This document shows, in pieces, positions 7,729 through 37,796 of a DNA stretch of 38,963 bases. The notes beneath the pieces were generated by a model. The model was not told the DNA's origin, did not search any database, and was given only the letters and a program-made list of their open reading frames with translations. The DNA is taken from NCBI GenBank assembly GCA_964488755.1, contig CAZAWS010000001.1, forward strand, positions 1 through 38,963, read 5' to 3'. Position 1 is the stretch's first letter; every line of letters starts with the position of its first letter. Made by a program: the position numbers and the translations under genes. The stretch is from an uncultured Anaerolineaceae bacterium. GTDB taxonomy: Bacteria > Chloroflexota > Anaerolineae > Anaerolineales > Villigracilaceae.

Positions 7729-9354
7729 CTAAGTCCTTAGCTCTACTTTTGTTACGCCTAAAGCCTCTTTAAGTTCTGCTAGGGCTATGTCTATCATGGC
7801 TTGAGGTGTATTCTCTCTACGAATTTTTGTGGTAATTTCTGTAACTTTGCGTTCACGCCCTGCTTTACGAGATTCTTTTACTAAGAGGCGGGCGTTGTCT
7901 AATGCTAACCCTGTGCGGGTGGCAATTGCTTCTACTAAGTCTAAGTTGTCACCTTTTAGACCTTCTAAGTTTTCGTTTTTACGAATGTCAAGGTAGCCTA
8001 TTATTTCATCTCGTACTTTTACAGGGAAAGTAATCATTTCTGCATTGTTTGTGGCTTTGTCTTTTGAGATGATTTCTATTTCTTCATCTATATAACGATA
8101 GTTTAGGTGATGTTGAGTAGAGGCAAGTTGCGACCAGGCTTGTTGTGTGTATTGACGGGAAATCTCTTGTGCTTCTTCAAGGGCATTTTTTGTAATTTCT
8201 ACTTGATGAGCGTTTTCTATGGCAATAGCTATTTGGTTTGCTAAGGTTTCAAAAATTTTGGCATCTTCTTTTGTAAATGCAGATTTCTTTTTGCTTTGTA
8301 CATCTAAAACACCAATGATGTCATTTCTAACTTTTAGGGCTAATGCCATTTCGGAGTGAGTTTCGGGAAGGTTGGGGTTATCAAAGTAAACGGCAGATTG
8401 CCCGACGTCTAAAGCGACGCGGGTTTGTCCATCACCGGCGGTGCGTCCTACAATGCCGACTTGCCCAATTTCAAGTTGGTGTCTGCGGGCTAACATTTTT
8501 CTGCCACCGGGGCTGTTGGTGGCTTTTAGTTGAGCAAATTTATTGTTTTTGCTGAGCAAAAAAATACCGACATGGTAAAAATCAAAATCTTCGGAAATTC
8601 TTAGGGCGATTTCAGGTAGAAGTGTATCTAAGTTTTGATTGAGTGCGATTCTTTGCGATACTTTTGCAATAGTTTCTAGGCGAGTGGCACGAAGTTTTGA
8701 TTTTTTTGAGGCTTTTTCTATGGCTTCAACGTGTTCTTCTAATTCTTTTTGTGTTTTTAGAAGTTCTTTGTTGTATAGAGCTATTTTTTCTTCACTTTTC
8801 TTTGTTGTGCCGATGGTTTTCTCGAGGTTATTAACTGTAAGAATAATGATTGCAGTGACGAGAAGAATAACTGTAGATATTGCTAGTGCCGCGGCTGTTG
8901 CGTTATCTTCTATAGGATAGATGATTCCTTGTGCTTCGGCGTAATATAAGACCCAAAGTGATGTTATGCTCATTGCCGTTAGCATCAGGGCTTTTTGTGT
9001 ACCACTTAATAAGCGAGCTAAAAAGATAAGGATAATATAAGTATATATGCCAATATCTTGAAAGCCGTTACCAATCCAAGCCAAATAGGTCATGATTGAC
9101 CAGACTATTGTTATGTAAAGAAATGAGGTTAAGGTAACTTTTCCTGAATATAATAAAAAGCGTAATCCTATAAAAATGATTAAAAGTATACCGAATATGA
9201 GTGTAACTTCTGGGGCGAAGGAGCCACTTGGGATTAAAAAAATTAATGCAATTGTGCTGATATTGAGAAGTGCATTTATATATTGAGCTGAATTTGTTTT
9301 TTCTTTATCATCAAAAATCGGGGGGGCAAGTAAGTTTTTAATTTTTATTAGCAT
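7729..9354 (-). CDS. Membrane-anchored GAF sensor paralogue P1 (short class: polytopic TM, coiled coil, GAF, conserved tail; no output domain)
   Basis: It has about 5-6 N-terminal TM helices and a coiled coil 'KELLKTQKELEEHVEAIEKASKK'. The GAF is 'FYHVGIFLLSKNNKFAQLKATNSPGGRKML...GIVGRTAG...LPETHSEMALALKVRNDIIGVLDVQS...LANQIAIAIENA'. The tail is 'FPVKVRDEIIGYLDI...LALDNARLL...RERKVTEITTKIRR...ALAELKEALGVTKVELRT'. ATGs occur at 9360 and 9354. The latter gives the paralogue-conserved N-terminus 'MLIKIKNLLAPPIF' and better AGGA spacing. Confidence 0.9.
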   Translation of the reverse strand: MLIKIKNLLAPPIFDDKEKTNSAQYINALLNISTIALIFLIPSGSFAPEVTLIFGILLIIFIGLRFLLYSGKVTLTSFLYITIVWSIMTYLAWIGNGFQDIGIYTYIILIFLARLLSGTQKALMLTAMSITSLWVLYYAEAQGIIYPIEDNATAAALAISTVILLVTAIIILTVNNLEKTIGTTKKSEEKIALYNKELLKTQKELEEHVEAIEKASKKSKLRATRLETIAKVSQRIALNQNLDTLLPEIALRISEDFDFYHVGIFLLSKNNKFAQLKATNSPGGRKMLARRHQLEIGQVGIVGRTAGDGQTRVALDVGQSAVYFDNPNLPETHSEMALALKVRNDIIGVLDVQSKKKSAFTKEDAKIFETLANQIAIAIENAHQVEITKNALEEAQEISRQYTQQAWSQLASTQHHLNYRYIDEEIEIISKDKATNNAEMITFPVKVRDEIIGYLDIRKNENLEGLKGDNLDLVEAIATRTGLALDNARLLVKESRKAGRERKVTEITTKIRRENTPQAMIDIALAELKEALGVTKVELRT

Positions 9355-9364
9355 AGCCATTTCC

Positions 9365-11017
9365 TTATTTTTCTTCAGCTAGAATTTCTGCATTTTGCGA
9401 TTCGTTTAGACGAAAAGCAATTTCTGGGCTATCTAAGATATTGGCTAATTCTTTAAGGGTGGTTTGAATAATTGTCTCCATACGCATTGATGTGCCAATT
9501 TTATTGGAGACTTCACCAATTAGTTGTTCTTTTGTTGCACGGCGTTGGCTATCATTGAGTAAGCGTGCATTTTCTAAAGCTAGTGCGGCTCTGTTGGTAA
9601 CAGATTCTATTAGTGCTTTGTTTTCTGCGTTAAGTGCAACTTCGCCTTGTTGAATTTTCAAAAGCCCTATTTCTGCACCATGCACGTTTACGGGGACTGA
9701 GAGTGTATTTTCTTCATCATCAGAAAATACGCTTGCCTGCTGAATGGGGTGTACGCTTTCGTTATAATAGCTATATCCATGCTGTGGTTGGGTGTTGGCA
9801 AGTTCGTTCCATGCTTGTTGCGTATATTGTTTGGATATTGCACGTGCTTCTTCTAGTGCGGCTTGCGTTATTTCTGCTTGGCGAGCGTTTTCTATTGCGA
9901 TAGAGACTTGGTTGCCTAAAGCTCTGAAAATTTCAAGATCGTTTTCAGAGAAAGCACCTTCTTCTTCGCTTTGCACATCTAAGACTCCGATAATTTTTGA
10001 GCCTATTTCTAAAGGAAGTGCCATTTCTGAGCGGGTGTTGGGGAGGTCGGGGTTGTTGAAGTAAGCGGCATCCTGCCCAACGTCAAGGGCGATGCGGGCG
10101 GTTCCATCGTAGGCAACACGTCCAACGATACCGCTGTGTCCCACTTCCAGTTGATGTTGACGGGCTAACATCCGTTTTCCACCTTCGCTATTTGCCGCTT
10201 TTAGTTGAGCAAATTTAGTATCTTTACTTAGGAGGAATATTCCAACGTGGTAAAAGTAAAAGTATTTGCTAATTAATGAGACAATTTTTGGCAAGAGTGT
10301 TTCCATATTTTGCACTAAGGCGATTGCTTTAGATGTTTCTGCTATAGCCAATAGTTGAATGGATTGCGTATTTAGCTCTGCTGTGCGCATATTGACACGT
10401 TCTTCTAATTCGTTTTGTAATGTTAAGAGTTCTTTATTACGTAAAAGAACTTCTTTTTCGCTTTTTTTTGTGAGAGATAAGGCATTATTTGTATTTTTTG
10501 TTGTAAGATAAATAACTACTGCTATGAGAATAAAGATGACTGATAAATCGCGAGCGAGATTGCCTATAGTGTCTAGGCTGGGGGTGATGGTGCCATTTTT
10601 CTCGGCGTAAACAAGCCCCCAGAGCATAAGGATACTAGAAATTGTAAAGAAAATAAAAATACGCGGGTTACTTAATAAGCTGGTTAAAAATATCAAAAGG
10701 ATATACACAATAAGTGAAGCATTGCGAATACCGTCACCATGCCACGCCATATAGGTCATGGCAATCCATGCTAAAGAAATTAAAAGAATAGTCGCTAGTT
10801 GCACCCTACCTGTTCGCATTAGCACTTGCATAACTATCGCGGTTAGAAATACGAAAATAAGTATGTTTCTAGAGGCAGGCTTGTCTTCAACTAAAATTAA
10901 TAAGCCAACTAAAAAAATAGTTGTATAAAGAATGGCATTAAGATATTGCGCCGCACGCATTTTCTCTTCATCTTCATAGATGGGAGGAGCAAGTATCTTT
11001 TTTATTGAATTAAGCAT
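9365..11017 (-). CDS. Membrane-anchored GAF sensor paralogue P2 (short class)
   Basis: 550 aa with a polytopic N-terminus. The GAF is 'FYHVGIFLLSKDTKFAQLKAANSEGGKRML...GIVGRVAY...LPNTRSEMALPLEIGSKIIGVLDVQS'. The tail is 'VPVNVHGAEIGLLKI...LALENARLLNDSQRRATKEQLIGEVSNKIG...TLKELANILDSPEIAFRL'. A 4-nt gap separates it from P1. Confidence 0.92.
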   Translation of the reverse strand: MLNSIKKILAPPIYEDEEKMRAAQYLNAILYTTIFLVGLLILVEDKPASRNILIFVFLTAIVMQVLMRTGRVQLATILLISLAWIAMTYMAWHGDGIRNASLIVYILLIFLTSLLSNPRIFIFFTISSILMLWGLVYAEKNGTITPSLDTIGNLARDLSVIFILIAVVIYLTTKNTNNALSLTKKSEKEVLLRNKELLTLQNELEERVNMRTAELNTQSIQLLAIAETSKAIALVQNMETLLPKIVSLISKYFYFYHVGIFLLSKDTKFAQLKAANSEGGKRMLARQHQLEVGHSGIVGRVAYDGTARIALDVGQDAAYFNNPDLPNTRSEMALPLEIGSKIIGVLDVQSEEEGAFSENDLEIFRALGNQVSIAIENARQAEITQAALEEARAISKQYTQQAWNELANTQPQHGYSYYNESVHPIQQASVFSDDEENTLSVPVNVHGAEIGLLKIQQGEVALNAENKALIESVTNRAALALENARLLNDSQRRATKEQLIGEVSNKIGTSMRMETIIQTTLKELANILDSPEIAFRLNESQNAEILAEEK

Positions 11018-11028
11018 GGCTTGTATTC

Positions 11029-13812
11029 CTATTTTTCTTCAGGAGAAAGTAGTTCAAAACTTACCTTGGGACTTCCTAGTGCTTGTCCTAATTCTTTTAC
11101 TGTGGTTTGTAAAATGGCATCTATTTGAGAAGAATTGCCTATTTTTGCTGAAATATCAGAAAGAATTGCCTCGCGTTGGGCTTTTCGCTGTGTTTCATCA
11201 AAATGCCTTGCACTGTCGAGAGCTACGCTGAGGTGCTCAGAGATTGCGGCGGTTATTTCAAGTTCTTCTGGTGTCCATGGTTTTTCATTTTCACCTTTGC
11301 GAATTTTGATACCACCTAGTATATACCCGCGGTTTTTGATGGGGATGATGGCTGTGCGTTTGTCATCTTCTAAGATTTTTCCTTCTTCTGTTATTTGTGC
11401 AAGGTTATTGTTTTTCTCCGATGCGCTAATTGGATGGGGTTTTCCTTTCTCATCAACAATAAATCTTGAAATGGTTTGGCTTTCTGTTAGTTCGCGCCAT
11501 GTTTTTTGGCTAAACTCACCGTAGGCTTTGCGCTCGGCTTTTAGTGCATCTTCTGATTTGGCGAGCAGTTCTGCGTTGTCAAGTGCTACTGCAACTTGGT
11601 CTACCATTGTTTGCAGAGGAATGATATTGCTTTTGTCAAATGCAGATTTCTCGGTGCTTTGGACTGTTAGTGCGCCAAGCACGCGTCCCCGAGACCGAAG
11701 TGGTAAGGCACTTTCAGAGTGGGTTTTTGGTAAATCGGGGTTTTTAAATTGAACAGCGTCTTCACCAATATCCAATGCTATGCGGGCTTGTTTATTTTCA
11801 ATACACCAACCGATCATTCCTTCGCCGATTTTAATTTTATGTTCTTTATCTAGCATTTTTTGCCCAGCTTTGCCGGTCGCAGCTTTGAGTACAGCTTGTT
11901 CATTTTCTTCATCAACTAGGAATAAACCCACATAATAGAAATTGAAGCGTTCCTTGATTATCTCTACAACTTCTTGGATGAGTGTATTTGTATCCAGCAT
12001 TTCGGATGCCGCTTGTGCTACCTTAGATGATGCTTCTAAATATGCGGTGCGTTGTTCTAGGGTTTGTGTGCGTTCTTCAATACGATGCTCTAGGGTGTTG
12101 ATGGTTTTGTTTAGGCGTGAGACGAGATCATTAAATGTGCGGGCTAGGGCACCGATCTCATCATCTGCTTCAATGGTTGCGCGGGCTTCTAGGTTACCTT
12201 TTGTAAATTCTTGTGCTGTGTTTTCCAACCGAATAAGGGGAGCTACCAAGATATTTGCCAAGCCAAAACTGGTAAAGACGGCTAAAATAATTAGGGCTAA
12301 AGATGAGATAACCATCCTACGAATTTGTTGTTGTACAGGGGCTAAAAAAATATCATTAGGTTGTGCAGATAGGATAAGCCAGGGGACAGTATTGAGTTGT
12401 GTTACCGCGCCAGAAACAGACTTGTCTGATTCTGTTTCATCGCTTGTGAAGTAGGGTGTCGTGACGAAATTAGTTAATCCTTCTTCTATTTTTGTGAAAT
12501 TATGCGATATTTCATTATCTTTTCGATATGCGGGAACAAGAAAGTTCTCTTTAAGGCTTTTAATTTCATCTGCGCTGGGGGAATAGATTGTTTTTCCAAT
12601 TAATTGAGGGCTTAAAGCATGGGCAAGAATAATATGGTTGCTGTCGAATAAGACTGAGAAAGAGCCTGCACCAGCAATGCTTTTTTCATTGACAATCATC
12701 TCTTGTAATGCCGAGGCACTATATTTGGCACGCAGAACGCCTAAGATACTGCCCATATCGTTATGAATGGGGGCACTGAAGAATAGGACACTTTCGTCTT
12801 CGTCTGGAAGGTATAGCACGGGTGAAATATAGCCTTTGCTAGAGTCAATTGGGCGTTGAAAATAATCTTGTTGGGATTCATCTTGACCAATTTGGGTTTT
12901 ATTTGAATCTATGATATTAATGCCGTTCACATCAAGAATTGCAAAAGAAAGAATATCGGTACTATTGCCACTTAAAGAAAAGAGAAGGTTTTGAACTTGG
13001 CTCTCTGTTGATGAATTTTTTCTTTCTTCTGGTGAGAGTAATAAATAGGAACTGATGTTTAAATATGTAGAAGTTGTTTCTACAAAGTTAAGATTGTATT
13101 TCAAAAAATTATCAATGTTTTTTGCAGAGAGTGATGCATTGGCGAGTAATTTCTCCTGTGCATTAGCGGTTATGGTATTGCGCATATTTAGACTAATAAA
13201 AGTAAAGGTAACGAGAACGATAGAGCTACTTAGGAAAAGAAAAGCGACAGCTAGTTTTGTACGTAGGGTATAAGAAGGATATTGTCTAAAAATGAGAACA
13301 AAAAAAACAAGAACGAAAAAACCTATGATATACGGTGATGCATCGTTATAAGCTACTAGGGGAGTGCGTTCAAATGGTTCTACAAGATAGAGAAATAGAA
13401 GATAGAAAACAACAGCCGCATTTCCGTACATGGCTTTTTTTGTTTCTGTAGAACTTAGGGTCATACTGGCTACACCAAAGGTAACGATACCACTTAGTAT
13501 AGCGAGCATAATATCTAAACCACTCGTTACGAGAGTTGTGATTAGCATAACCACATTGGTTGCGATAATCATTAGAATAACGGCTCTTTTGCCTTGTCCT
13601 TTACGAACAAGAAATGCAGAGAGTATGTAAATACCAGAGAGAATAGCTAATTGGACATTGGCATGGAAAAAGGTTATCGGTATTTCTGTAAGTGGTGAAA
13701 AATAATATAACGACGCAAAGGCAAGAATAATAGACATTGCTACAGCAACGAAAAAAGCATTTTTCTCTTGTTGAGGAGAAAATTGATGGGGGTGAGATGT
13801 GTTTTCTATCAT
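11029..13812 (-). CDS. Membrane-anchored GAF sensor paralogue P3 (long class: polytopic TM, double-Cache-like domain, TM, HAMP, GAF, tail)
   Basis: 927 aa. The Cache-like stretch is 'DYFQRPIDSSKGYISPVLYLPDEDESVLFFSAPIHNDMGSILGVLRAKYSASAL'. The HAMP is 'APLIRLENTAQEFTKGNLEARATIEADDEIGALARTFNDLVSRL'. The GAF is 'FYYVGLFLVDEENEQAVLKAATGKAGQKML...GMIGWCIE...LPKTHSESALPLRSRGRVLGALTVQS'. The tail is 'IPIKNRGYILGGIKI...ALDSARHFDETQRKAQREAILSDISAKIG...VKELGQALGSPKVSFEL'. Confidence 0.93.
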   Translation of the reverse strand: MIENTSHPHQFSPQQEKNAFFVAVAMSIILAFASLYYFSPLTEIPITFFHANVQLAILSGIYILSAFLVRKGQGKRAVILMIIATNVVMLITTLVTSGLDIMLAILSGIVTFGVASMTLSSTETKKAMYGNAAVVFYLLFLYLVEPFERTPLVAYNDASPYIIGFFVLVFFVLIFRQYPSYTLRTKLAVAFLFLSSSIVLVTFTFISLNMRNTITANAQEKLLANASLSAKNIDNFLKYNLNFVETTSTYLNISSYLLLSPEERKNSSTESQVQNLLFSLSGNSTDILSFAILDVNGINIIDSNKTQIGQDESQQDYFQRPIDSSKGYISPVLYLPDEDESVLFFSAPIHNDMGSILGVLRAKYSASALQEMIVNEKSIAGAGSFSVLFDSNHIILAHALSPQLIGKTIYSPSADEIKSLKENFLVPAYRKDNEISHNFTKIEEGLTNFVTTPYFTSDETESDKSVSGAVTQLNTVPWLILSAQPNDIFLAPVQQQIRRMVISSLALIILAVFTSFGLANILVAPLIRLENTAQEFTKGNLEARATIEADDEIGALARTFNDLVSRLNKTINTLEHRIEERTQTLEQRTAYLEASSKVAQAASEMLDTNTLIQEVVEIIKERFNFYYVGLFLVDEENEQAVLKAATGKAGQKMLDKEHKIKIGEGMIGWCIENKQARIALDIGEDAVQFKNPDLPKTHSESALPLRSRGRVLGALTVQSTEKSAFDKSNIIPLQTMVDQVAVALDNAELLAKSEDALKAERKAYGEFSQKTWRELTESQTISRFIVDEKGKPHPISASEKNNNLAQITEEGKILEDDKRTAIIPIKNRGYILGGIKIRKGENEKPWTPEELEITAAISEHLSVALDSARHFDETQRKAQREAILSDISAKIGNSSQIDAILQTTVKELGQALGSPKVSFELLSPEEK

Positions 13813-13906
13813 AAGTATTCTCTTATTTGGAGAAATTAGGACATTATCTTAATATCTTGGGGAAAAAACTTCCGAAGTTTAGTGCCTGAGTAGTTACCTT
13901 CTCTTT

Positions 13907-15565
13907 TTATTCTGCATCTATCCAGACTTCTGTTTCAGCATTCCCAAGAATTTTATGCAATTCGATTGCGGCAGCTTCAAGGACTTTTTCAATATCTAAG
14001 CTCTCGCGGATGCGGGCAGAGCTTTCGCTAATAATATGTTCACGTGCGCCACGCCGCCGGCTATCTTCAAAAAGTCGGGCACTTTCTAGTGAAATGCTAA
14101 GGTGTTCGGACAGTGTCTCGGCTAGGGCTATTTCTTCTGTTGTCCAGATGCCGTGCTTAGGATCTTTTTTGATTTGAATGTTACCAAGCACTTTCCCATG
14201 ACTTTTAATAGGGAGTAAAGCAGTCCCGTCTTCTTTGACTAATACACTTTCGAGGGACGTGTTTTTTTCATTTGCGATGCTGTAAGTTTCTCCATCTGTG
14301 TTGATTCCATAGGCGGGGATGGCGCCAGATTTTATTAGTTTCTTCCATGCGCTATAGCTCAACTCTCCATAGGCTAGGTGTTCAGATTCTAGAGCGGCTT
14401 CACTTTGTGCAAGCAGTTCTGCGTTATCAAAGGCGATGCCAATTTGGTCTGCCATTGTTTGTAGGGTGGTAATAATTTCTGATGAAAAGGCATTTTTTTC
14501 TTTACTTTGCACGGTAATAACGCCCAAAATACGTCCACGAGAGCGAAGAGGAATAATTGCTTCAGATTGTGTTTTGGGTAGATAGGGGTTTTGGAACTCA
14601 ACAACATCTGTTCCTACTCCTGTAGCAATGTGTGCTTTATTTTCTTTGATTGTGCTCGCTATTATGCCGTCTTCAAGGGGATATTTATGCTTTTGTCTGA
14701 GCATTATTTTTCCTGCATCACCAGATCCAGCCTTTAGCATTATCCATGTATTGTCGCTATTTATAAGAAAAAGCCCGACATAATAAAGATTAAAATTCTC
14801 TTTAACTAATTCTACAATTTCTTTTGATAGTTTGTCTGTATCGGTAAAACTTGCTGCGACTTGGCTTATTTCAGCGGCACCTTTGAGATAGGAAGACTGG
14901 GTTTCTAGTTTGCGTGTGTTTTTATCTAGTTCTTCAACTTGTTCTTCTAACTTATTGCTTAAGTTTTTAAGCCTGATATTGGTTTCCGTTGCGTCTTTGA
15001 GGCGTTCTTTTTTTGTATTTTCTTGGAAGACAGAGGCTATAATTAATCCGATGCCTAAAAATAAAAGAGAAAGTATATCTCTGATATAGTCTCCGCCAGT
15101 TGTGGGAATCAAGATGAGTGAAATGGCGATTATGTCAACCAGAATTAAGGCGATGAGACTAGAGGATGTAAATAAAATACTACCAATAATAAAGGCGAGT
15201 GGGAAATTTGCGAAAAGTGTTGATGTAACGTCAGTGACCCCTCGCATTAAAGAGCTTAGGGTGACTAGCGATATGGTGCCAACAAGAATGATGCTTCCCC
15301 AAGTATAATGACGGCTTCGGCTAGCAAGATAAGCAAATATAAATACAACTGTAGACGTAAGAATAATCAGGAGAGTTGATAAATCGCCTTGACTAGCAAA
15401 AACAGAAACAATCCCCATCAATGTCCAGATAACCGCCACAATAGAAAGAATGGCAGAAAAGCGCGCTTTGCGTTGCGCTCCAATTCTTTGAATAGAAGGA
15501 TGTGGGCGAATCAGCTTTTCAAAGAAGGTTGTTTTATCTTGCGTTATTTCTTCTGAATTAGTCAT
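13907..15565 (-). CDS. Membrane-anchored GAF sensor paralogue P4 (short class)
   Basis: 552 aa with a polytopic N-terminus and a coiled coil 'LKNLSNKLEEQVEELDKNTRKLETQSSYL'. The GAF is 'LYYVGLFLINSDNTWIMLKAGSGDAGKIML...LPKTQSEAIIPLRSRGRILGVITVQS'. The tail is 'LPIKSHGKVLGNIQI...SLESARLFEDSRRRGAREHIISESSARIRESLDIEKVLEAAAIELHKILGNAETEVWI'. The start overlaps the P5 stop by 8 nt (ATGACTAA). Confidence 0.93.
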   Translation of the reverse strand: MTNSEEITQDKTTFFEKLIRPHPSIQRIGAQRKARFSAILSIVAVIWTLMGIVSVFASQGDLSTLLIILTSTVVFIFAYLASRSRHYTWGSIILVGTISLVTLSSLMRGVTDVTSTLFANFPLAFIIGSILFTSSSLIALILVDIIAISLILIPTTGGDYIRDILSLLFLGIGLIIASVFQENTKKERLKDATETNIRLKNLSNKLEEQVEELDKNTRKLETQSSYLKGAAEISQVAASFTDTDKLSKEIVELVKENFNLYYVGLFLINSDNTWIMLKAGSGDAGKIMLRQKHKYPLEDGIIASTIKENKAHIATGVGTDVVEFQNPYLPKTQSEAIIPLRSRGRILGVITVQSKEKNAFSSEIITTLQTMADQIGIAFDNAELLAQSEAALESEHLAYGELSYSAWKKLIKSGAIPAYGINTDGETYSIANEKNTSLESVLVKEDGTALLPIKSHGKVLGNIQIKKDPKHGIWTTEEIALAETLSEHLSISLESARLFEDSRRRGAREHIISESSARIRESLDIEKVLEAAAIELHKILGNAETEVWIDAE

Positions 15566-24487: not shown

Positions 24488-24502
24488 GGGCGTTTCCAGT
24501 GC

Positions 24503-26158
24503 CTAATTTTCTTTAGGTGTATTTAATCGTACTTCTACTTTTTTTAGGTCAAAAGTATTTTTCATTTCTTTGATGGCAGTTTTTAGAACCATATCCATAT
24601 CTAGTGTCTCGCGCAATTTATTTGAGAATTCAGAGACAATTTGGTCTCTATTGGCTTGTTCCCGTGTTTCATCTACGAGCCTAGTATTTTCTATTGCCAG
24701 CCCTACCTGATTGGCAACTTCTGAAATAAGTTCTTTCTCTTTTCCACTCCATTTTTTTATTTTTCTTTTTAATGCGATTTTACCAATTGCTTGCTTTCGG
24801 AGTGAAATTGAGATATTGGCTTCTTCATCATTTTTTTCTATATTCAAACCGTCTCGATTTTTAGCTTGTTTAATACTAAGGGGTGTATACCGAAAGCGGT
24901 GAGATTGTCGCTCTAAATGTGCTTTCCAGCGCAGTTGAGATTGCTTTCCTGTAAGTGTTTCTAGCTGAGAGATATTTTCTTGGGCATTTTCAATGAGCTG
25001 TGCGTTTTGAATAGCTAAGGCAATTTGATTAGCAAGTGTTTGAAAAATCTCAATATCCTGTTGGCTAAATGCCCGTGTTTCAATTGACTGGATATCAAGA
25101 ACGCCGATAACATGCTCTTGAGAAAGAAGCGGGAGCACCATCTCTGAGTGTGTTTCTGGTAAATCGGGATTGTTGAAGAATGTGGCATCTTCACCTACAT
25201 CCAGTGCGATATGAGGACGTTTCTCTGCCGCGGCAACTCCAACAATGCCTTCGCTCCCGACCCGAAGTTGGTGCCCGCGTTTCAGCATTTTTTTACCCCC
25301 ATCGGATGATGCGGCATGCAAAATAGCATATTCGCTCTTATCATCCAATAGAAAAACGCCCGCGTGATAATAATCAAATTTTTCAGAAATTAAAGAAGTC
25401 AAATTATTTAATAGTTCATCTACGTTCTGAAAAACAAGTGCCTGATGAGCCACTTGAGCAATTGTTGTGAGTTGCGATGCGCGGTAATCTAGTGCTTGTG
25501 TTCGTTCATCAATGCGTTTTTCAAGATTTTCTTGTAGCTTTCGGAGCCTTTTATTTGCCTCCTTCAGAGAAATTTCATTTTTTTTGGCTTCTTCAATAGA
25601 TTTTGTTAATAACCTGGTTGTTAGAAAAACAATTGCACCCGTTGTGATACTAAGTACTATAAGAATATTAATATCGGCTGAAAGATTTTTTTCAAAAGAT
25701 GCGTAATCAACAATAAAAACACCAGTTTGTTGGGCATAACCGACAGCACCTATAGTTATTGAAGTTAGAAGTCCGAAAAGAACTGCGCCATATTCTCCTA
25801 AAAAAAGCCCAGCCAAAACAATAGCTGCAGGAAAACCGATAACTACTGGATGATGTATTCCAATTCCATCATACCCAAAAATCATAAAATAGGTCATTGC
25901 GAAAAACACAAAAAACGGAATGATAACTCGTGCAGGAAGTAGGTTGCCTCGATATGTAAAGAAAAAAGTACTTATAATCGCTAAGGAAAGAACACCTAAG
26001 ATTACTTTGTTTGTGTTGGTATGAATTATGCCAGAAGAAATGAAAATGATAATCGCTAAGATAATGGCACTAGAGATTATAAGTATTATCTCGCGAAGAT
26101 ATGTATTATCGGGGCGAGCCTCTTTTCTTTTTTCTTTGGGAGAAGTTTCTTTTATCAT
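24503..26158 (-). CDS. Membrane-anchored GAF sensor paralogue P9 (short class)
   Basis: 551 aa with a polytopic N-terminus and a coiled coil 'LKEANKRLRKLQENLEKRIDERTQALDYRASQL'. The GAF is 'YYHAGVFLLDDKSEYAILHAASSDGGKKML...GIVGVAAA...LPETHSEMVLPLLSQEHVIGVLDIQS'. The tail is 'ISISLRKQAIGKIAL...AIENTRLVDETREQANRDQIVSEFSNKLRETLDMDMVLKTAIKEMKNTF'. Confidence 0.92.
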   Translation of the reverse strand: MIKETSPKEKRKEARPDNTYLREIILIISSAIILAIIIFISSGIIHTNTNKVILGVLSLAIISTFFFTYRGNLLPARVIIPFFVFFAMTYFMIFGYDGIGIHHPVVIGFPAAIVLAGLFLGEYGAVLFGLLTSITIGAVGYAQQTGVFIVDYASFEKNLSADINILIVLSITTGAIVFLTTRLLTKSIEEAKKNEISLKEANKRLRKLQENLEKRIDERTQALDYRASQLTTIAQVAHQALVFQNVDELLNNLTSLISEKFDYYHAGVFLLDDKSEYAILHAASSDGGKKMLKRGHQLRVGSEGIVGVAAAEKRPHIALDVGEDATFFNNPDLPETHSEMVLPLLSQEHVIGVLDIQSIETRAFSQQDIEIFQTLANQIALAIQNAQLIENAQENISQLETLTGKQSQLRWKAHLERQSHRFRYTPLSIKQAKNRDGLNIEKNDEEANISISLRKQAIGKIALKRKIKKWSGKEKELISEVANQVGLAIENTRLVDETREQANRDQIVSEFSNKLRETLDMDMVLKTAIKEMKNTFDLKKVEVRLNTPKEN

Positions 26159-26167
26159 GTTATTTTA

Positions 26168-28093
26168 TTAGGATTGTTGGTCTTCAACATTAAGTTCAAT
26201 AATTGCCTCTGTTGCGCCCAGTGCATTTCCAAGTTCTTTGATTGCAACTTTAAGGATGCCATCAATCGTATTTGATGACCATATTTTGCTGGTAATTTCA
26301 GCAATTAGTCTCTCTTGTAGGGCAACTTGTTGACTGTCTTCGAGAAGGCGAGCATTTTCAAGAGCAATTGCGGCTTGTGTGGCAACCGCTTCTATCCAAT
26401 CGCCATCTTCTGCCGTCCACTCAGCATTTCCCTCAAGCATAATCTCACCGATAACCTGATCTCGTAAAGCTAAGGGAACATTTAGTATTGTGCTTTCCTC
26501 GGTAGATTTCTTGCCCGTTGAAAAACTAAGTTCTCCTTGTGTTTCTAGTTTCTCGGACCAAGCGGCAGAAAGTTGAGCTTGCTGGCTAGCGCGAATTTCT
26601 CTGAGAGCTTGTTGTGATTCTTGAAATAAACGAGCATTTTCGAGCGCAACAGCCACTTGATGCGCCATGCCTTGTAGTGTCTCTACAACATTCTCTCCAA
26701 AAGCGTTTTCCTCTGTAGACTGTGCGTCCAATGCGCCTAAAATGTGTCCGCCAGCAATTAGGGGGAGTGCGATTTCGGAGTGAGTGTGAGGAAGCAAAGG
26801 GTTATTAAAGCGAACGGCTTCGCTCCCAACATCGTGTGCAATATGAGCCTCTCTAGAGCTAATCGCAGAGCTGACCATACTTCCTCCGCCAAGTGAGAGG
26901 CGATGTTTTTTTGCTTTTAATGCAACACCTGCTTCACCAGTAGCCGCTTTTAACTCCGCCCATGAGCTATCAGGCGATATGATAAAAATAGCCGCATAAT
27001 AATAGCCTAGGCGCTCAGTGATTAGATTAACGACTTCGTCAATTAATTCATCTGGATCAAGAATTGAACTTATAGCACGTCCGACATCAGAGGTTGCTTT
27101 AAGTTGTTCTGTGCGTACTTCTATTTCTGCTTCAAGATGGCTTTGTAAGTCATCAAGGCGAGAAACCATACTGTTAAAGTAAATGGATAATTCCCCGATT
27201 TCATCAGGGGCAGTGACGGTTGCTCGCTGTTTCAAATCGCCTTTTTCAATTTGATTAAAGGTTTGTATAAGATCGGCAAGGGGGGTGTACACAGAGCGTG
27301 CAAACAAGGCTGAAAGCAAAAAACCGAAGATTATAATTAGTATAGCAACAACCAACGATTGAATTTGCATAGTCTGTAGCACGGCTGGGTCGTTGGTTTC
27401 TAATGCTTTGGTTGTCTGGTGATACCCGATGGGGGCAATCAAAAGAATACTGGTTACAATTAAAGCGAAAATAACGCTTTGTAGTTTTATAGATATACCA
27501 ACGCCTCTCGTTTTGATATGCTTTCTTTTAGTATCGCGGGGGAGCAGTATTTCGTAAGTGGGTTTAAGAAAATTATCGAGGAGGAGCAAAGATAGGGTTG
27601 AGCTACCTAATATCGCGGCAGAATTTCCAAGAAGGGTATATATAACTTGGTCTTTGTCTGCACCTAATTGGAATATCTGGAAAAGTGTTTCTGGAATAAT
27701 AAAAAAGACGACGGTAAGGGAAAGAAGGATGAGACTATAACGCCAAGCAAGAGAGGTGATCTGGTTCCAAATACTAATATCATCGCGCGTTGTTAACGCG
27801 GGTTCTTTATTATCCCTCCAATCATTAAGCTTTTTACGCACATTACTATATAAAAAGTAGACAATAAGAAGAGCAAGGAGGTTTGTGAGTAAAAGAGCTA
27901 CAGCAATAAATTTTATCGTTGCTATCGACTGCGCTGTTGAAAATTCGGCATTGACATGGATAGAGTAACGCGCAGCTACAACCCCAAAGATAGAAAAAAT
28001 TTGCGTGACGAATATCACAATAATTAGATACCACCCGCCTGTGCGTTGGAGTATTTTGAGATAGGGGGAGTTCTTTTCTGAAGAATTATTCAT
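26168..28093 (-). CDS. Membrane-anchored GAF sensor paralogue P10 (polytopic TM, HAMP, GAF, tail)
   Basis: 641 aa. The HAMP is 'TPLADLIQTFNQIEKGDLKQRATVTAPDEIGELSIYFNSMVSRL'. The GAF is 'YYYAAIFIISPDSSWAELKAATGEAGVAL...LPHTHSEIALPLIAGGHILGALDAQS'. The tail is 'VPLALRDQVIGEIML...ALENARLLEDSQQVALQERLIAEITSKIWSSNTIDGILKVAIKELGNALG'. The start overlaps the P11 stop by 8 nt (ATGAATAA). Confidence 0.92.
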   Translation of the reverse strand: MNNSSEKNSPYLKILQRTGGWYLIIVIFVTQIFSIFGVVAARYSIHVNAEFSTAQSIATIKFIAVALLLTNLLALLIVYFLYSNVRKKLNDWRDNKEPALTTRDDISIWNQITSLAWRYSLILLSLTVVFFIIPETLFQIFQLGADKDQVIYTLLGNSAAILGSSTLSLLLLDNFLKPTYEILLPRDTKRKHIKTRGVGISIKLQSVIFALIVTSILLIAPIGYHQTTKALETNDPAVLQTMQIQSLVVAILIIIFGFLLSALFARSVYTPLADLIQTFNQIEKGDLKQRATVTAPDEIGELSIYFNSMVSRLDDLQSHLEAEIEVRTEQLKATSDVGRAISSILDPDELIDEVVNLITERLGYYYAAIFIISPDSSWAELKAATGEAGVALKAKKHRLSLGGGSMVSSAISSREAHIAHDVGSEAVRFNNPLLPHTHSEIALPLIAGGHILGALDAQSTEENAFGENVVETLQGMAHQVAVALENARLFQESQQALREIRASQQAQLSAAWSEKLETQGELSFSTGKKSTEESTILNVPLALRDQVIGEIMLEGNAEWTAEDGDWIEAVATQAAIALENARLLEDSQQVALQERLIAEITSKIWSSNTIDGILKVAIKELGNALGATEAIIELNVEDQQS

Positions 28094-31000
28094 ATCGGCT
28101 CTTGTTTTCTTGGTTCTTCATCACGGCCATTTTGACCTCAGTGTGCTCTGCCCCAGTAGCTTTCGTTAATTCTTTTGCCGTAGTAGAAAGAATGGTTTGG
28201 ATATTGGTGGAACTACGGATTTTTCCTGTAATTTCATAGAGCACTCGCTCGCGTTCAGCTTGTTTACGAACTCGTTGAACAAGGCGGGTATTTGCGATAA
28301 TTGCTGCCAAACTACCTACAAGTGTTCCGAGCATTTCCTCATCGTGTTCATCGTAGGTGGCGATTTCTTCGCTTTCCACATTTAGAACACCCAATAATTC
28401 TTTTCTAAAAATCAGCGGTATTGCCAATTCAGAGCGTGTGTTTATGCTAACGGGAACATATCGTGGATCAGCACTTGTATCGTCAATTCTTAAGAGTTTT
28501 TGGTTTCTTGCTACCCAGCCAGTTATACCACTTGTTATGGGGACATGAATGAGAGCCTCATCTTCTTCTGAATAGCCAACGGAGGAACTAACTACTAGAT
28601 TTTCCTTTTTTGCGTCTAGCAGAAGTATAGCTACACGATCACCGCCTAAGATAACTTGGATTCCCTGAACGGCACCTCGCAGAGATTCTTTTAGCGTTGT
28701 TCCTGATGCTGCCGAAGTAGTAATATGATGAAGAAGTCGATGCTGAGAAAGATGTTCTTGAGTTTCAGCAAAGAGTTTTGTGTTAATAATAGCAATGGCT
28801 AGTTGATCGGCAAGAATGCTAAGCGTTTGTAAAACTTCTTCATGAAAAGCGTAAGGGGTAACACTCTGAACATCTAAAACGCCAAGAATCCGCTCCCCGA
28901 CTTTGATAGGGATGGCTGCCTCCGCGCGTGTTTCTGGCAATAGTGGATTAGCATAATAAGTTGCATCTTTGCTCGTGTCTTCAATGACAAGATTTTCTCC
29001 ACGGCTAGAAACATAGCCAACAATAGATTTTGAACCGATCCCAAGTTTATGCCCATTTCTTTTTAGTTGCACGCCTGCCTCACCGGTCGCTTCGCGAATG
29101 ACGGCGTATTCACCCAAAGAATCAATAATGAAAACGGAGGCATGATAAAAGTCAAAGCGATCTCGAATCAAAGTAACGGCGTTGCCTAATAACTCATCCA
29201 GATGGAGTGAACTGCTAATATCACGAGCAATCTCAGCCGCACTCTCTAATTGAAGTGCTCTGCGGCGACTATCTTCTAGTAACTGGATATTATGGATAGC
29301 CCCAGATACCTGAGATGCTAAAGTGTTGATAAAGCGGAGTGAGTTCTCATCAAAACTTTGTTCTTTTTCTGTATCTTGTATAATAATTGCTCCAATAACT
29401 TTCCCTTTGACCTTCAATGGAGAGCCAAGCCATGATTTAGCAGACGAGCCTGTCCCGGCTAGCTTTGCGCCTAAGGCGGCGGCACGTTCTTCTGTATTTT
29501 CAACAATCATCAACGATTGCCCTGAGTGAATGATAATAGAAGTAAGCCCTTCACCTAAAGGGAAAGATGCAATGCTCGTAACTTCACCATTTTCGTAAAA
29601 ATAAGGAACATCAATGGTGTCGCTAATATCATCATATAGTGCGACAATAAGGGGATAATCGCCTAAAATTTGGCGTACCTGTTCATGCAGTATCGGATAC
29701 AAAGAATTAAGGTCTTGTGCCGCCGCTGTTGCTTGATTGGTAATTGAAATAGCATCCATTTCAGCTAAGCGTTTTTCTGTTGCTTCCGATGCCCGTATTT
29801 TATCAAGGGAAATTATAACCATCTCGATAAGATTGATATAAGGTTGTATCGCTGTATAGGTCAGGTGCTTTTTGTGTCTTGCGCCTATCATTATTAACGC
29901 TTCTAGATTATTTAGATGCATTATCGGGATCAGCGCGATCACTTCTACGCCCATTTTTCGGGGGACATCAACAAAAGCCCTTGGGAAGGATGTTTGAGTA
30001 TTCAAATCAATAATTTCAATATCTTCTTTTATTGATTTAATAATTGAAACAGGCGATATATCTAGGTACTCAGGTAGCTTAAAGCGTATTATGTCATAAT
30101 CGGGGTCTGACGCGGCGTATATCTTAAATCCATTGTCTTTGGCTGTAAAAAACACCGTACTAAAAGGGGCGTCTTTTAAAATATGACTAGTTGTTTCAAA
30201 CACACCTTCTCGAGTCTTTTCTTGAGCAATTTCTTGACTTGTACGATATAAGCGATCAAGTTCATGGAGATTAACATCTGATGATTCGAATAAGCTGACG
30301 TTTTGGATAGCAGTAGCAATTTGGTTAGAAAGTGTTTGTAATACCGCGATAGTCGCCTCGTCAAAGGCTTCTGGGAATGTGCTTTGTACATCTAGCACGC
30401 CAAGAACAGTCTCGCCAACAGAAATAGGAATGCCAACTTCTGCATGTGTATTCGGCAGAAGCTCATTTTTGAAATGGATAGGATCGTCACCGACATCAGA
30501 TGCGGCACGGTACTGGTTATTCGCGGATACCCAGCCCACGATAGAATTAGACCCAACAGTAAGACGATGCTCGTCTGATAGCATCTTTTTTGCAGAGGGG
30601 CTATGAGCCGCTCGCAAATAGGCTGTTTTGCCCGTTTGTCCTATCATGAAAATCCCCACATGATAGTAGTTTAGTCGTTCTGCGATAAGGCGAGTTGTTT
30701 TTTCGAGTAACTCGTCTAGATTAAAAGTTGCCACAATACTTTGAGCAACATCTGAAGCGGTACGAATATATTCAGTTCGCTCTTCAACCTGCTGTGTGAG
30801 TGAGTTATATAAGGTGGATAATTCCTCAGCCATTTGGTTGAAAGAGTATTCCAGTTTTCCAATTTCATCATAGCGTTCTACAGGGGCACGCTCTTGCAAG
30901 TTGCCCTGTGCAAATTTATGTACCGTTTCAGATAATACTTCTATAGGGGCAATAATCCTCTTGCTTGCAGAGAGAAGAGCGATGCTTAAGAAGAATAAAG

Positions 31001-31976
31001 TAGCTATAAAAAGACCAACTGTAAAGGGAGCAAGTCCCCTTAACTTTCCAAAGGCAATTTTTTTCGGAACCTCAAGAACAACCTGATTACTATTAGATTC
31101 CAGCGGGTGAGCTTGTGCGATAACGTCTACACCAAGATTGTTTTCAAAGGATAATAAAGAGGTTATTGTATCTTCTGTAGAAGTAGGATTTGTTAAAAAT
31201 GAAGAAATCTCACTTCGCTGTTCTTCGGTGGGCGTGAAAGGAGTTAAGTCTTCTACGTGGGGGTCTATCCCTAAATATACATCGTTTGCTGAGATGATAT
31301 AAGCAGTTGCATCGGGGCTGAGAAGCATGGTTTCTTTAAGAAAATTTTCTGTCATTTCGTCATCAGTTACGCCCACCAAAACACCAATATCTTTCCCTGT
31401 GCTAGTAAATAGAGGCGCGATTGTAAAAATAGCAAACTTGTCAGGAAATAGTACGTCTAGTCCATATATCCCCACAGAGCCTTCTTTTTTATTTGTTTGC
31501 TCTAAAAGAAACGGATCTTCAATGACCGTACCTTGCCATGTACTATCCGACCCTGCATAAATAACACCCTCCGGGCTAAGAAGAAAGAAGTCATCAAAGA
31601 GTGGGGTGATTCTTGAATTATTGATTTGCTCAAACCTTTCGTATAATTCTTTTTCGTACTCAGTCGAGCTTTTTTCAGTAAGATTCTCAGCGACACCTTG
31701 AAACTCAGAAATCTGGCTTATGCGCTCCAACCGAATTTCTCTGGTTTTCATAGATTTATCAAATGAGTTCGTTTGATTGTATAAGGTATTATGAATACCA
31801 GATGCGGTTTCTTCTTTCAGAAGGGAATACGCGCCTAAATACCCCACTAGTGCCATAATAGAAACAGGAATTATGGTAAAAAGAAGTAAAGTGATTGTAA
31901 TAGAACGCGCCAGACTTTTTTTGAATTTTGGGTCTTCGGGTACACCTTCTATAGCATGAGATTCTTCGATAGTCAT
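28086..31976 (-). CDS. Membrane-anchored multi-GAF sensor paralogue P11 (TM, Cache-like extracytoplasmic domain, TM, HAMP, about five GAF domains, tail)
   Basis: 1296 aa. Two TM segments, 'ITITLLLFTIIPVSIMALVGYLGAYSLL' and 'FTVGLFIATLFFLSIALLSA', bracket a ~290-aa domain. The HAMP is 'APIEVLSETVHKFAQGNLQERAPVERYDEIGKLEYSFNQMAEEL'. Family-type GAFs are 'YYHVGIFMIGQTGKTAYLRAAHS...LPNTHAEVGIPISVGETVLGVLDVQS' and 'FYHASVFIIDSLGEYAVIREATGEAGVQL...LPETRAEAAIPIKVGERILGVLDVQS', plus three more divergent GAF-like repeats. The tail is 'IPLIFRKELLGVLNV...IIANTRLVQRVRKQAERERVLYEITGKIRSSTNIQTILSTTAKELTKATG'. Confidence 0.93.
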   Translation of the reverse strand: MTIEESHAIEGVPEDPKFKKSLARSITITLLLFTIIPVSIMALVGYLGAYSLLKEETASGIHNTLYNQTNSFDKSMKTREIRLERISQISEFQGVAENLTEKSSTEYEKELYERFEQINNSRITPLFDDFFLLSPEGVIYAGSDSTWQGTVIEDPFLLEQTNKKEGSVGIYGLDVLFPDKFAIFTIAPLFTSTGKDIGVLVGVTDDEMTENFLKETMLLSPDATAYIISANDVYLGIDPHVEDLTPFTPTEEQRSEISSFLTNPTSTEDTITSLLSFENNLGVDVIAQAHPLESNSNQVVLEVPKKIAFGKLRGLAPFTVGLFIATLFFLSIALLSASKRIIAPIEVLSETVHKFAQGNLQERAPVERYDEIGKLEYSFNQMAEELSTLYNSLTQQVEERTEYIRTASDVAQSIVATFNLDELLEKTTRLIAERLNYYHVGIFMIGQTGKTAYLRAAHSPSAKKMLSDEHRLTVGSNSIVGWVSANNQYRAASDVGDDPIHFKNELLPNTHAEVGIPISVGETVLGVLDVQSTFPEAFDEATIAVLQTLSNQIATAIQNVSLFESSDVNLHELDRLYRTSQEIAQEKTREGVFETTSHILKDAPFSTVFFTAKDNGFKIYAASDPDYDIIRFKLPEYLDISPVSIIKSIKEDIEIIDLNTQTSFPRAFVDVPRKMGVEVIALIPIMHLNNLEALIMIGARHKKHLTYTAIQPYINLIEMVIISLDKIRASEATEKRLAEMDAISITNQATAAAQDLNSLYPILHEQVRQILGDYPLIVALYDDISDTIDVPYFYENGEVTSIASFPLGEGLTSIIIHSGQSLMIVENTEERAAALGAKLAGTGSSAKSWLGSPLKVKGKVIGAIIIQDTEKEQSFDENSLRFINTLASQVSGAIHNIQLLEDSRRRALQLESAAEIARDISSSLHLDELLGNAVTLIRDRFDFYHASVFIIDSLGEYAVIREATGEAGVQLKRNGHKLGIGSKSIVGYVSSRGENLVIEDTSKDATYYANPLLPETRAEAAIPIKVGERILGVLDVQSVTPYAFHEEVLQTLSILADQLAIAIINTKLFAETQEHLSQHRLLHHITTSAASGTTLKESLRGAVQGIQVILGGDRVAILLLDAKKENLVVSSSVGYSEEDEALIHVPITSGITGWVARNQKLLRIDDTSADPRYVPVSINTRSELAIPLIFRKELLGVLNVESEEIATYDEHDEEMLGTLVGSLAAIIANTRLVQRVRKQAERERVLYEITGKIRSSTNIQTILSTTAKELTKATGAEHTEVKMAVMKNQENKSRYE

Positions 31977-32002: not shown

Positions 32003-32434
32003 TTAATGCAATTCCCAAACTTCTTCACCTTCTAAAATGCGCTGTATTTGTTCGGGGAAACGATCAGGGTCAAGAGGTTTTCCAAGAAAACCATTAAAAC
32101 CTGCTGCACGAGCTTTTCTAATTTGCTCAGAACTGGCTTCAGCAGTAACAGCAACAATAGTTGTGTCTTTCAAGCGTTCTGATTGTCGAATTTTTTTCAG
32201 CGCGCCATATCCATCTTCGTAAGGTAAACGAATATCCATCAAAACTAAATCGAGTCTGGGGAGTGTATCGGCATACTCCACAACCTCGTAGCCCGATGTT
32301 TTCCATTCGCAATGAATGCCTAAATACCCTAACATTCGTGCGATTAGTACAAAATTAGAAACATTATCTTCAACGACTAAAACAGTCGCATCTTTCATTA
32401 CAGATTCTTCGATGGGGTCAGCATTTGGTATCAT
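32003..32434 (-). CDS. Stand-alone CheY-like response-regulator receiver protein
   Basis: 143 aa: 'VLVVEDNVSNF...LVLMDIRLPYEDG...IVAVTAEA...FLGKP' (acidic pocket, acceptor Asp, Thr, Lys). There is no output domain. AGGA lies 7 nt upstream of the ATG, and the gene ends 26 nt upstream of P11. Confidence 0.93.
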   Translation of the reverse strand: MIPNADPIEESVMKDATVLVVEDNVSNFVLIARMLGYLGIHCEWKTSGYEVVEYADTLPRLDLVLMDIRLPYEDGYGALKKIRQSERLKDTTIVAVTAEASSEQIRKARAAGFNGFLGKPLDPDRFPEQIQRILEGEEVWELH

Positions 32435-35019: not shown

Positions 35020-35040
35020 TATATTTCTCCAAACTTTTTA

Positions 35041-35118: not shown

Positions 35119-35128
35119 AAATTATTTA

Positions 35129-37785: not shown

Positions 37786-37796
37786 GGAATATACTC

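Follow-up and report, generated by a model that had tools for sequence, protein, structure and literature searches.

Arrays of GAF receptors that end inside a GAF domain, encoded with one soluble hybrid histidine kinase and a ParA-type ATPase in a conserved Anaerolineae operon

Results and discussion

Organization of the locus

We analyzed a 38,963-nucleotide stretch of DNA (here called the window) from an uncultured Anaerolineaceae bacterium (GenBank assembly GCA_964488755.1, contig CAZAWS010000001.1), the minus strand of which carries 21 genes worth naming. Sixteen of these are co-directional and packed between 32857 and 1462 (~31 kb), with spacings of -46 to +177 bp and common stop/start overlaps. 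The gene order is two single-domain receivers (REC1, REC2), eleven receptor genes (G11 to G1), a ParA-type ATPase, a soluble hybrid histidine kinase and a pyridoxal phosphate (PLP) enzyme fused to a receiver (REC) domain, and then, after a gap of 312 bp, an EamA-family transporter, with which the operon totals 17 genes (Table 1). An initial annotation had singled out the receptors as eleven consecutive minus-strand open reading frames (ORFs) of 539-1296 aa, and their coordinates (7729-31976) were exactly as claimed. Judged from gene order in related loci, this operon is conserved across Anaerolineae (Chloroflexota). We lean towards reading its receptors as kinase-less proteins that would act through the shared soluble kinase.

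Table 1. Features of the window, with domain names from Pfam unless noted otherwise
Feature	Positions	Strand	Length (aa)	Description
G11	28086-31976	-	1296	Periplasmic domain (weak dCache_1), HAMP, four GAFs, C-motif 28128-28271
G10	26168-28093	-	641	Transmembrane segments, HAMP, GAF, reduced GAF, C-motif 26192-26335
G9	24503-26158	-	551	Multi-transmembrane block, GAF, reduced GAF, C-motif 24524-24667
G8	21566-24487	-	973	Multi-transmembrane, unassigned periplasmic domain, HAMP, GAF, reduced GAF, C-motif 21602-21745
G7	19950-21569	-	539	MASE11, degenerate GAF, reduced GAF, C-motif 19992-20135
G6	18284-19990	-	568 (ORF)	Multi-transmembrane, GAF 18833-19249, reduced GAF, C-motif 18323-18466
G5	15558-18329	-	923 (ORF)	Multi-transmembrane, dCache_3, HAMP, GAF, reduced GAF, C-motif 15582-15725
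G4	13907-15565	-	552	Multi-transmembrane block, GAF, reduced GAF, C-motif 13919-14062
G3	11029-13812	-	927	Multi-transmembrane, dCache_1, HAMP, GAF, reduced GAF, C-motif 11050-11193
G2	9365-11017	-	550	Multi-transmembrane block, GAF, reduced GAF, C-motif 9407-9550
G1	7729-9360	-	543 (ORF)	Multi-transmembrane, GAF, reduced GAF, C-motif 7732-7875 (protein end)
ParA-type ATPase	6766-7551	-	261	Soj/ParA-type P-loop ATPase; AAA_31 (4e-45), CbiA
Hybrid histidine kinase	3144-6797	-	1217	Soluble; Pfam and gene call
Kinase N-terminal basic peptide	6738-6797	-		MSKNQIDNRLNKLFDNIKER; consensus M[SP]KKKxxx[KN]RLxKLFxD[IV]xxEE
Kinase half GAF	6414-6614	-		QVTEQLSLALENAHLFEE; last strands and last helix, by profile match
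REC1	32480-32857	-	125	Single-domain receiver; best NCBIfam matches are hybrid-kinase receivers
REC2	32003-32434	-	143	Single-domain receiver; best NCBIfam matches are hybrid-kinase receivers
PLP enzyme-REC	1462-3141	-	559	ThrC-like PLP enzyme (PALP 4e-60) with C-terminal REC (Response_reg 8e-19)
EamA-family transporter	199-1149	-	316	Conserved last gene of the cluster
Terminator-like hairpin	32979-33020	-		17-pair stem and T run, between ABC exporter gene and REC1
ABC exporter genes (two)	33196-37024	-		Adjacent; ABC_membrane and ABC_tran
Terminator-like hairpin	37121-37147	-		Strong; 11 pairs, 7 GC
Two genes	37357-38753	-	142; 318	Membrane protein; putative lipoprotein
Antisense ORF	11942-12454	+	170	Antisense to G3

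Receptor inputs, GAF domain and search for outputs

Hydrophobic N-terminal segments in all eleven proteins bear out the predicted membrane input, and the inputs differ in kind: Pfam recognizes Cache-type or MASE11 modules in some (Table 1), G8 has a periplasmic domain without assignment, and G1, G2, G4, G6 and G9 have blocks of 5-6 transmembrane segments without a family. HAMP was found in G3, G5, G8, G10 and G11 (E 2e-10 to 7e-6) and was not detected by Pfam in the six short multi-transmembrane receptors. The true starts of G1, G5 and G6 are likely slightly downstream of those of the longest ORFs, with gene calls of 541, 909 and 557 aa, respectively; the G6 gene would then begin at 19957.

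A Pfam GAF domain is present in 11/11 receptors above the gathering cut-offs (E 1e-12 to 4e-61), four times in G11. The GAF signature given in the initial annotation was recovered in the alignment as FxxYYVGxFL, G.GmIG, NPxLPxTxSExAxPL...G.L..QS and LADQxAxAxxNA, with G7 as a degenerate case, and the preceding junction helix (E..RTQ.LE.R...L) is likewise visible. In G7, the NPxLPxTxSE segment is lost through an 8-residue deletion and the FYYVG motif is absent, while the reduced GAF and C-motif described below are kept; its orthologues in the related loci L055 and L007 are 41-44% identical.

None of the eleven receptors carries HisKA, HATPase_c, GGDEF, EAL, HD, cyclase, PP2C, STAS or HTH families at E ≤0.01 in Pfam, in line with the earlier view that they lack an output domain, and the same threshold gave the signalling domain of methyl-accepting chemotaxis proteins (MCPs; PF00015) in 0/11; an MCP-like PDC sensor sub-match in G3 fell below its cut-off. 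An NCBIfam scan of the receptors also returned no output domain. A regular-expression search found no H-box, so that the receptors do not classify as sensor histidine kinases, and regular expressions for catalytic motifs were negative across all eleven, save one chance EAL-like pentapeptide in G2.

The earlier picture of the GAF as the sensor calls for revision. The GAF is the best conserved segment of the paralogues (mean pairwise identity 44%, vs 24%-34% for other cytoplasmic segments) and the N-terminal inputs come from different families; hence, the GAF is more likely a common transmitter or common-ligand site than a diversifying sensor element, and the N-terminal modules look like the variable sensors. 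Cysteine occurs once in the 8,063 residues of the eleven receptors (0.012%) and once in the 1,217 of the kinase; relatives in other loci contain 0.19%. This near-absence argues against bilin attachment or thiol catalysis in the receptor GAFs. With the G6 GAF alone as query, phmmer found no match in the PDB.

The receptor tail is built from GAF pieces

The initial annotation described a conserved closing tail of ~105 aa. The region after the GAF measures 154-185 aa (230 aa in G11), and alignment, profile search of PDB sequences, AlphaFold2 and Foldseek indicate that it is composed of GAF pieces and is not a separate conserved domain. It consists of a reduced GAF, followed by two helices and the first strand of another GAF, and then the stop codon. 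The tails of G1-G10 align with the complete fourth GAF of G11, minus its middle part, and Pfam reports sub-threshold GAF_3 or SpoVT_C stretches in several of them. The final ~48 aa, which we call the C-motif (consensus QRRAxRExxIxEISxKIRExLxIExVLKxAxxELxxALGxxExxVxL), map in the PDB profile search to the first helices and first strand of cyanobacteriochrome- or phytochrome-type GAFs (8w26 residues 11-53, 6bhn residues 3-41; also 6oap); this search returned GAF-containing sensor proteins plus two chance-level matches (E ~0.3). In all eleven window receptors, the stop codon follows 0-13 aa after the end of the C-motif. The residues beyond it are Glu/Lys-rich and number 6-13 in G2, G5, G6, G7, G8 and G11 (e.g., EEKE, EGEEKENNA and DERDEEKRK).

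An AlphaFold2 model of G6 residues 205-568, made from a 100-sequence alignment (mean predicted local distance difference test [pLDDT] score 83), shows a confident GAF (mean block pLDDT 89-98 over most of it) that is joined by a helix of 50 residues to a reduced GAF with five strands, after which come a 38-residue helix, one more helix and a weak strand. The Foldseek matches listed for this model are GAF or tandem-GAF folds (PtsP GAF, fRMsr, Lcd1, PDE5 and PDE2) with TM-scores of ~0.75-0.8 on the target, and those for a tail-only model are GAF pieces of ~50-70 residues, none at E ≤0.001. An unknown catalytic fold in the tail was ruled out, as the PDB profile search and Foldseek with the two AlphaFold2 models gave essentially only GAF; HMM and structure searches for a known catalytic or DNA-binding fold, which the initial annotation had named as a way to overturn its claim, found no such fold in the tail.

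When the tail profile was run against 1.84 billion representative proteins, the top matches were giant proteins with 10-21 junctions, and these multi-GAF proteins swamped the search, which therefore gives no estimate of family size. The giant proteins (P0155-P0304) reach 3,952 aa, most exceed 1,500 aa, and the junction profile matched them up to 21 times each. Word-indexed protein searches with the tail, and with the half GAF of the kinase, returned short fragments only.

Conservation of the operon across Anaerolineae

Relatives were sought with the GAF-plus-tail alignment in one genome per species, which gave at least 467 stretches, and 77 loci were kept. All of these are from Chloroflexota metagenome-assembled genomes, mostly Anaerolineae, with Anaerolinea thermophila included. 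A hidden Markov model (HMM) of the C-motif identified 437 ORFs in 77-82 related loci, and in ~425 of the 437 the motif lies ≤80 aa from the stop codon. Arrays usually have 3-10 members per 20-kb locus, and two loci on one contig (L037 and L020) together hold at least 12. In the sources, the proteins are named only "GAF domain-containing protein" or "hypothetical".

Labelling the ORFs of related loci with the window's own proteins revealed a recurring co-directional order, namely two RECs (at the array head in at least 12 related loci), an optional membrane histidine kinase, a variable number of receptors, ParA, the hybrid kinase with REC, the PLP enzyme-REC and EamA. A second, independent sample of 80 loci was obtained by scanning metagenomes for the N-terminal fragment of the kinase. 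Seventy of the 72 loci with sufficient upstream sequence have ParA immediately ahead of the kinase, and in 61 loci the gene immediately ahead of ParA encodes a C-motif receptor. The initial annotation had proposed a survey of related genomes as a check, and the gene set (two RECs, receptors, ParA, soluble hybrid kinase and REC-fused PLP enzyme) was found to recur in dozens of Anaerolineae genomes and metagenome contigs. These results show that the receptors are inseparable in evolution from the ParA ATPase and the hybrid kinase. One locus (L031) keeps the array, kinase, PLP enzyme-REC and EamA and has no ParA.

Positional orthologues of the window receptors lie in collinear order in L055 and L007, with 40%-70% identity, and those of the long receptor G11 elsewhere are of similar size (1287 aa at L056:2248-6111 and 1295 aa at L050:1482-5369). 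A few duplications are specific to the window: the cytoplasmic parts of G4 and G6 resemble G5, and G1 resembles G2. The half of the locus from EamA to G5 also occurs in two independent assemblies, GCA_029933645.1 and an ENA metagenome contig, both with a ParA protein identical to that of the window and an unchanged gene architecture.

Arrays of other genomes contain periplasmic solute-binding genes (Peripla_BP_6, SBP_bac_1, ABC_sub_bind and Peripla_BP_1; L020:1541-2725, L020:6801-8570, L018:16167-17219, L075:9289-10392 and L081:7786-8505), of which the window has none. Their position inside arrays fits receptors for external chemicals.

A half GAF near the N-terminus of the hybrid kinase

The only kinase core that Pfam detects in the window is that of the soluble protein at 3144-6797, as claimed initially, and its start at 6797 agrees with the 1217-aa gene call. 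HisKA, HATPase_c and REC in one chain make it a hybrid kinase; the closest NCBIfam model is HrmK, and orthology to it is not supported (310 bits vs a cut-off of 725). Its order is N-terminal peptide, linker, half GAF, GAF, PAS, PAS, junction helix with GAF, HisKA, HATPase_c, REC and REC. The basic N-terminal peptide (Table 1) matches its consensus in 74/80 metagenome loci, and in kinases downstream of ParA it is followed by a low-complexity linker of variable length.

The half GAF matches positions 57-172 of the receptor-tail profile (54 bits) and corresponds in the alignment to the closing strands and final helix of the receptors' reduced GAF. In these alignments it is a GAF without its N-terminal half, and it is complementary to the GAF start at the receptors' C-terminus. 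Its signature is W.TL.V.DE...R.WT.DEQLLV.QVTDQLSLALENARLFQE, and the signature helix is found in these kinases only, once each and near the N-terminus (19/19; ~79/83 in a larger set). Identity of this helix across nine genomes is 73%, vs 69% for the catalytic core, a level as expected of a hub that fits many partners. The domain after the half GAF is a GAF in some kinases and a PAS in others.

A stand-alone 75-aa half-GAF protein (P0307) was rejected as a real small protein, because the genes of its contig are broken by frameshifts. On L083 (ENA contig_77286), a related operon is chopped into many short ORFs, probably by frameshift errors, which creates spurious stand-alone half-GAF proteins.

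The ATPase and its putative partner

The gene between the last receptor and the kinase encodes an ATPase with the deviant Walker A motif xKGGxxK[ST] ("NEKGGVAKTT"), and among solved structures it is closest to a ParA family protein (8ray) and a Soj-type segregation protein (1wcv). It did not reach the NCBIfam equivalog cut-offs for ParA_partition (97.9 vs 180), MinD (54.8 vs 212.9) or BcsQ (77.1 vs 157.85). The kinase start overlaps the ParA stop. In systems positioned by ParA/MinD ATPases, partner proteins interact with, and are recognized by, the ATPase through a positively charged, disordered N-terminus, and the partner genes adjoin the ATPase gene, often immediately downstream (PMC10241942). 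The window kinase has such a basic peptide, which is conserved, together with a low-complexity linker and a gene position next to the ATPase, and thus fits the profile of a putative ParA partner protein.

A conserved cytoplasmic peptide, M..IKK.LAPPIF.DEEK.R.A, opens the short multi-transmembrane receptors G1 (9354), G2 (11017) and G6 (19957) and occurs in 17/371 complete relatives. Its basic-hydrophobic-acidic pattern loosely echoes the kinase N-terminal peptide.

A receptor cassette fused to a kinase core

In one related locus, a 1528-aa protein (L021:4303-8889) consists of dCache-HAMP followed by a whole receptor cassette, C-motif included (276 bits over profile positions 2-336). The GAF begun by its C-motif is completed (residues 888-1015), and HisKA-HATPase-REC-REC, orthologous to that of the window kinase, follows. 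In five loci, the array-head gene encodes a dCache-HAMP-GAF-HisKA-HATPase kinase that shares a homologous junction helix and GAF with the receptors. The last GAF of the window kinase and the helix before it, which lead directly into HisKA, also belong to the receptor type, scoring 117 bits with the L021 cassette and 130-140 bits with receptors of the window. On the basis of the fusion, the array-head kinases and this kinase-proximal GAF, the receptors, compared domain by domain, have the layout of a membrane hybrid kinase truncated immediately after strand 1 of the GAF nearest the kinase core.

Proposed mechanism and alternative explanations

Because the receptors have no enzymatic output, direct contact with the single hybrid kinase is the most likely route of signalling, and we favour, if only slightly, kinase-less receptors that act through it. 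The proposal in the initial annotation that they signal through a separate kinase is indirectly strengthened by the L021 fusion, the membrane kinases with the same front end and the complementary GAF fragments; from these sequences we infer all protein-protein contacts themselves, the direction of control and the output.

How such contact might be made is more tentative. In PAS and GAF sheets, strand 1 lies beside the C-terminal strand, with the first helix packed alongside the last. Given this order, the fragments retained in receptor and kinase would form a contiguous sub-structure, and it is possible, though not what we would expect in most such cases, that the GAF start of the receptor folds in trans with the half GAF of the kinase. 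In each receptor, its own membrane or periplasmic input module precedes a constant cassette of signalling helix, GAF, reduced GAF, helix-helix-strand and stop. Under split-GAF docking, the two helices and strand 1 at the receptor end would pair with the closing strands and helix of the kinase's half GAF, which would restore a continuous helical path from sensor to DHp, as in the fused L021 relative. From 3 to 12 or more alternative receptors might time-share or co-occupy one kinase. The ParA ATPase could bind the kinase N-terminal peptide and hold or distribute the kinase at receptor clusters, phosphoryl groups could pass to REC1, REC2 and the receiver domain fused to the PLP enzyme, and the product of that enzyme could leave through EamA. 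With equal caution, docking of this kind may represent a receptor-array architecture specific to Anaerolineae that uses neither MCPs nor CheA/CheW and places kinase position under ParA control.

Several results weigh against this reading. In the G6 monomer model, the last strand forms in cis with low confidence (pLDDT ~50-74), and the tail-only model (mean pLDDT 71) leaves it unstructured, so that a cis cap formed by the C-terminal strand is possible. The succession of last strands, helix and start of the next GAF is a general feature of proteins with tandem GAFs. In the 77 and 80 loci, no receptor C-motif is directly followed by a kinase-type half GAF, and what follows the cassette in the L021 fusion is a complete GAF and not a half GAF. 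Some arrays have no ParA or kinase nearby within the sequence covered. The kinase also carries GAF and PAS sensors of its own and might function without the receptors.

Among the alternatives, the receptors could be decoy or dominant-negative regulators, i.e., truncated paralogues that heterodimerize with full-length kinases and silence or retune them, using either the common HAMP/GAF spine or the GAF type that they have in common with the kinase-proximal GAF of the soluble kinase. The homology of the cassette to the first half of genuine kinases (L021 and the array-head kinases) and the receptor-type GAF and junction helix of the soluble kinase are what such regulators would show. However, the window encodes no membrane kinase as a pairing partner, a decoy would not require eleven collinear paralogues of long-standing conservation and distinct inputs, and the idea differs from receptors acting through the kinase mostly in the sign of the effect; we consider it unlikely.

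The receptors might instead be autonomous ligand-binding membrane proteins (sinks, scaffolds or transport regulators) that make no kinase contact and bind a common small molecule, e.g., a nucleotide or the compound that the ThrC-like enzyme makes. This appears quite unlikely. Although the GAF pocket region (NPxLPxTxSE) is the best conserved, and structural neighbours include the ligand-binding GAFs of PtsP, fRMsr, Lcd1 and PDE5, autonomy leaves unexplained the invariant stop inside a GAF start, the tight linkage to ParA and to a kinase with a matching half GAF, and the fusion of the same cassette to a kinase core in L021. The receptors also lack an NKFDE-type or Cys-based ligand motif, with a single cysteine among all their residues.

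It is very unlikely that the receptor tails regulate the cycle or localization of the ParA-type ATPase, for example to position a structure along the filament, with the kinase as a passenger. In its favour, the ParA gene is always found between those of the last receptor and the kinase, some receptors have the M..IKK.LAPPIF.DEEK peptide and receptor C-termini are charged; yet the clearest partner tag (basic N-terminus plus disordered linker, encoded directly downstream) sits on the kinase, and L031 retains array, kinase, PLP enzyme-REC and EamA without ParA.

Finally, although proteins that end inside a GAF domain seem truncated at first sight, the chance that frameshifts or assembly errors cut larger kinase genes, as the initial annotation had considered, or that these are decaying pseudogenes is negligible, and split kinase genes were ruled out: ~425 relatives from independent assemblies share the end point, each downstream gene opens with its own membrane domain, the two independent assemblies agree in ParA protein and architecture, and orthologues are collinear at 40%-70% identity.

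Receivers, PLP enzyme, transporter and flanking features

No HPt domain was detected in the window by Pfam. The PLP enzyme has a CxxC N-terminus and an SFKDR lysine motif, and scored 264.6 bits against the threonine synthase model NF006050, under the cut-off of 303. An enzyme of this kind with REC follows the kinase in at least 12 loci. The PLP enzyme-REC and EamA come together as the last two genes of the operon in at least 12 related loci, and the gene content suggests phosphorylation-controlled synthesis and export of an amino acid-derived compound.

The terminator-like hairpin ahead of REC1 marks what we take from its sequence as the predicted 5' limit of the operon. A scan for sigma-70 promoters gave no more sites than expected by chance. 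The two adjacent ABC exporter genes upstream probably encode a heterodimer, and such a pair beside a receptor array was found in none of the other related loci. Further upstream, the strong hairpin at 37121-37147 comes after the genes for a 142-aa membrane protein and a 318-aa putative lipoprotein with a lipobox-like N-terminus (LAGC), neither of which had a Pfam or NCBIfam match. The ORF antisense to G3 is probably spurious.

Relation to known systems and implications

The operon resembles chemosensory arrays (MCPs with CheW and CheA) in having many receptors with varied inputs (Cache and HAMP) and one soluble kinase, and those arrays that use ParC/ParP or PpfA/TlpT in having a ParA/MinD-type ATPase in the cluster and CheY-like single-domain receivers. 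Unlike them, it has no MCP signalling domain, CheW, CheA (HPt/P5), CheB or CheR, and has a GAF-cassette transmitter, a HisKA-type hybrid kinase and a presumed output that includes a PLP enzyme in place of a motor. The chemosensory analogy drawn in the initial annotation is reasonable at the level of layout (many receptors, one kinase and a ParA-type ATPase), whereas the locus failed every test of membership in the chemosensory family.

Sensors that lack a kinase, or do not phosphorylate, and control a partner histidine kinase include RetS and LadS, which act on GacS, and H-NOX or NosP proteins with their kinases. As in these systems, sensing and phosphorylation reside on separate polypeptides, and control would be exerted through protein contact. 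The operon differs in its 3 to 12 or more paralogous receptors with a dedicated C-terminal module, in a ParA that belongs to the set and in a kinase bearing a fragment that matches the receptor module. The ATPase and the following gene recall the cargo-positioning systems ParAB, McdAB and MinDE, with a Soj-like ATPase, a deviant Walker A motif and a neighbouring protein with a basic N-terminus and disordered linker. In contrast to these, the putative partner is a hybrid histidine kinase, and the ATPase scores under all NCBIfam equivalog cut-offs.

The front end of the receptors is like that of NarX/NarQ-type kinases with HAMP, signalling helix, GAF or GAF-like domain and DHp (PMC8199190), although the receptors lack the DHp and catalytic domain of HAMP-GAF sensor kinases and have a reduced GAF and a GAF start instead. 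Tandem GAF modules (PDE2A, PDE5A and phytochrome or cyanobacteriochrome kinases) share the GAF-long helix-GAF arrangement (Foldseek 3mf0, 3lfv, 1mc0 and 6oap) and a junction sequence that matches that of the receptors. They differ in that the second GAF of the receptors has no pocket-forming middle, the third is cut after strand 1 and no effector follows. A literature search, with most subscription journals outside its reach, found nothing on the gene set, in keeping with the initial annotation, to which no described system of this type was known.

Two links between receptor and kinase are well understood, namely fusion in one chain, as in two-component systems, and the coupling of many receptors through CheW and CheA. 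The operon suggests a third arrangement, made from GAF pieces and a ParA ATPase. We read it as two-component signalling with separate receptors; it is class-wide in Anaerolineae and could embody a new coupling principle. If true, split-GAF docking would be a natural case of domain-fragment complementation for signal routing and could provide a modular part for synthetic receptor-kinase wiring. Anaerolineae are abundant, poorly studied filamentous bacteria of sediments, sludge and subsurface habitats, in which the REC-controlled ThrC-like enzyme and EamA exporter hint at a regulated amino acid-derived product.

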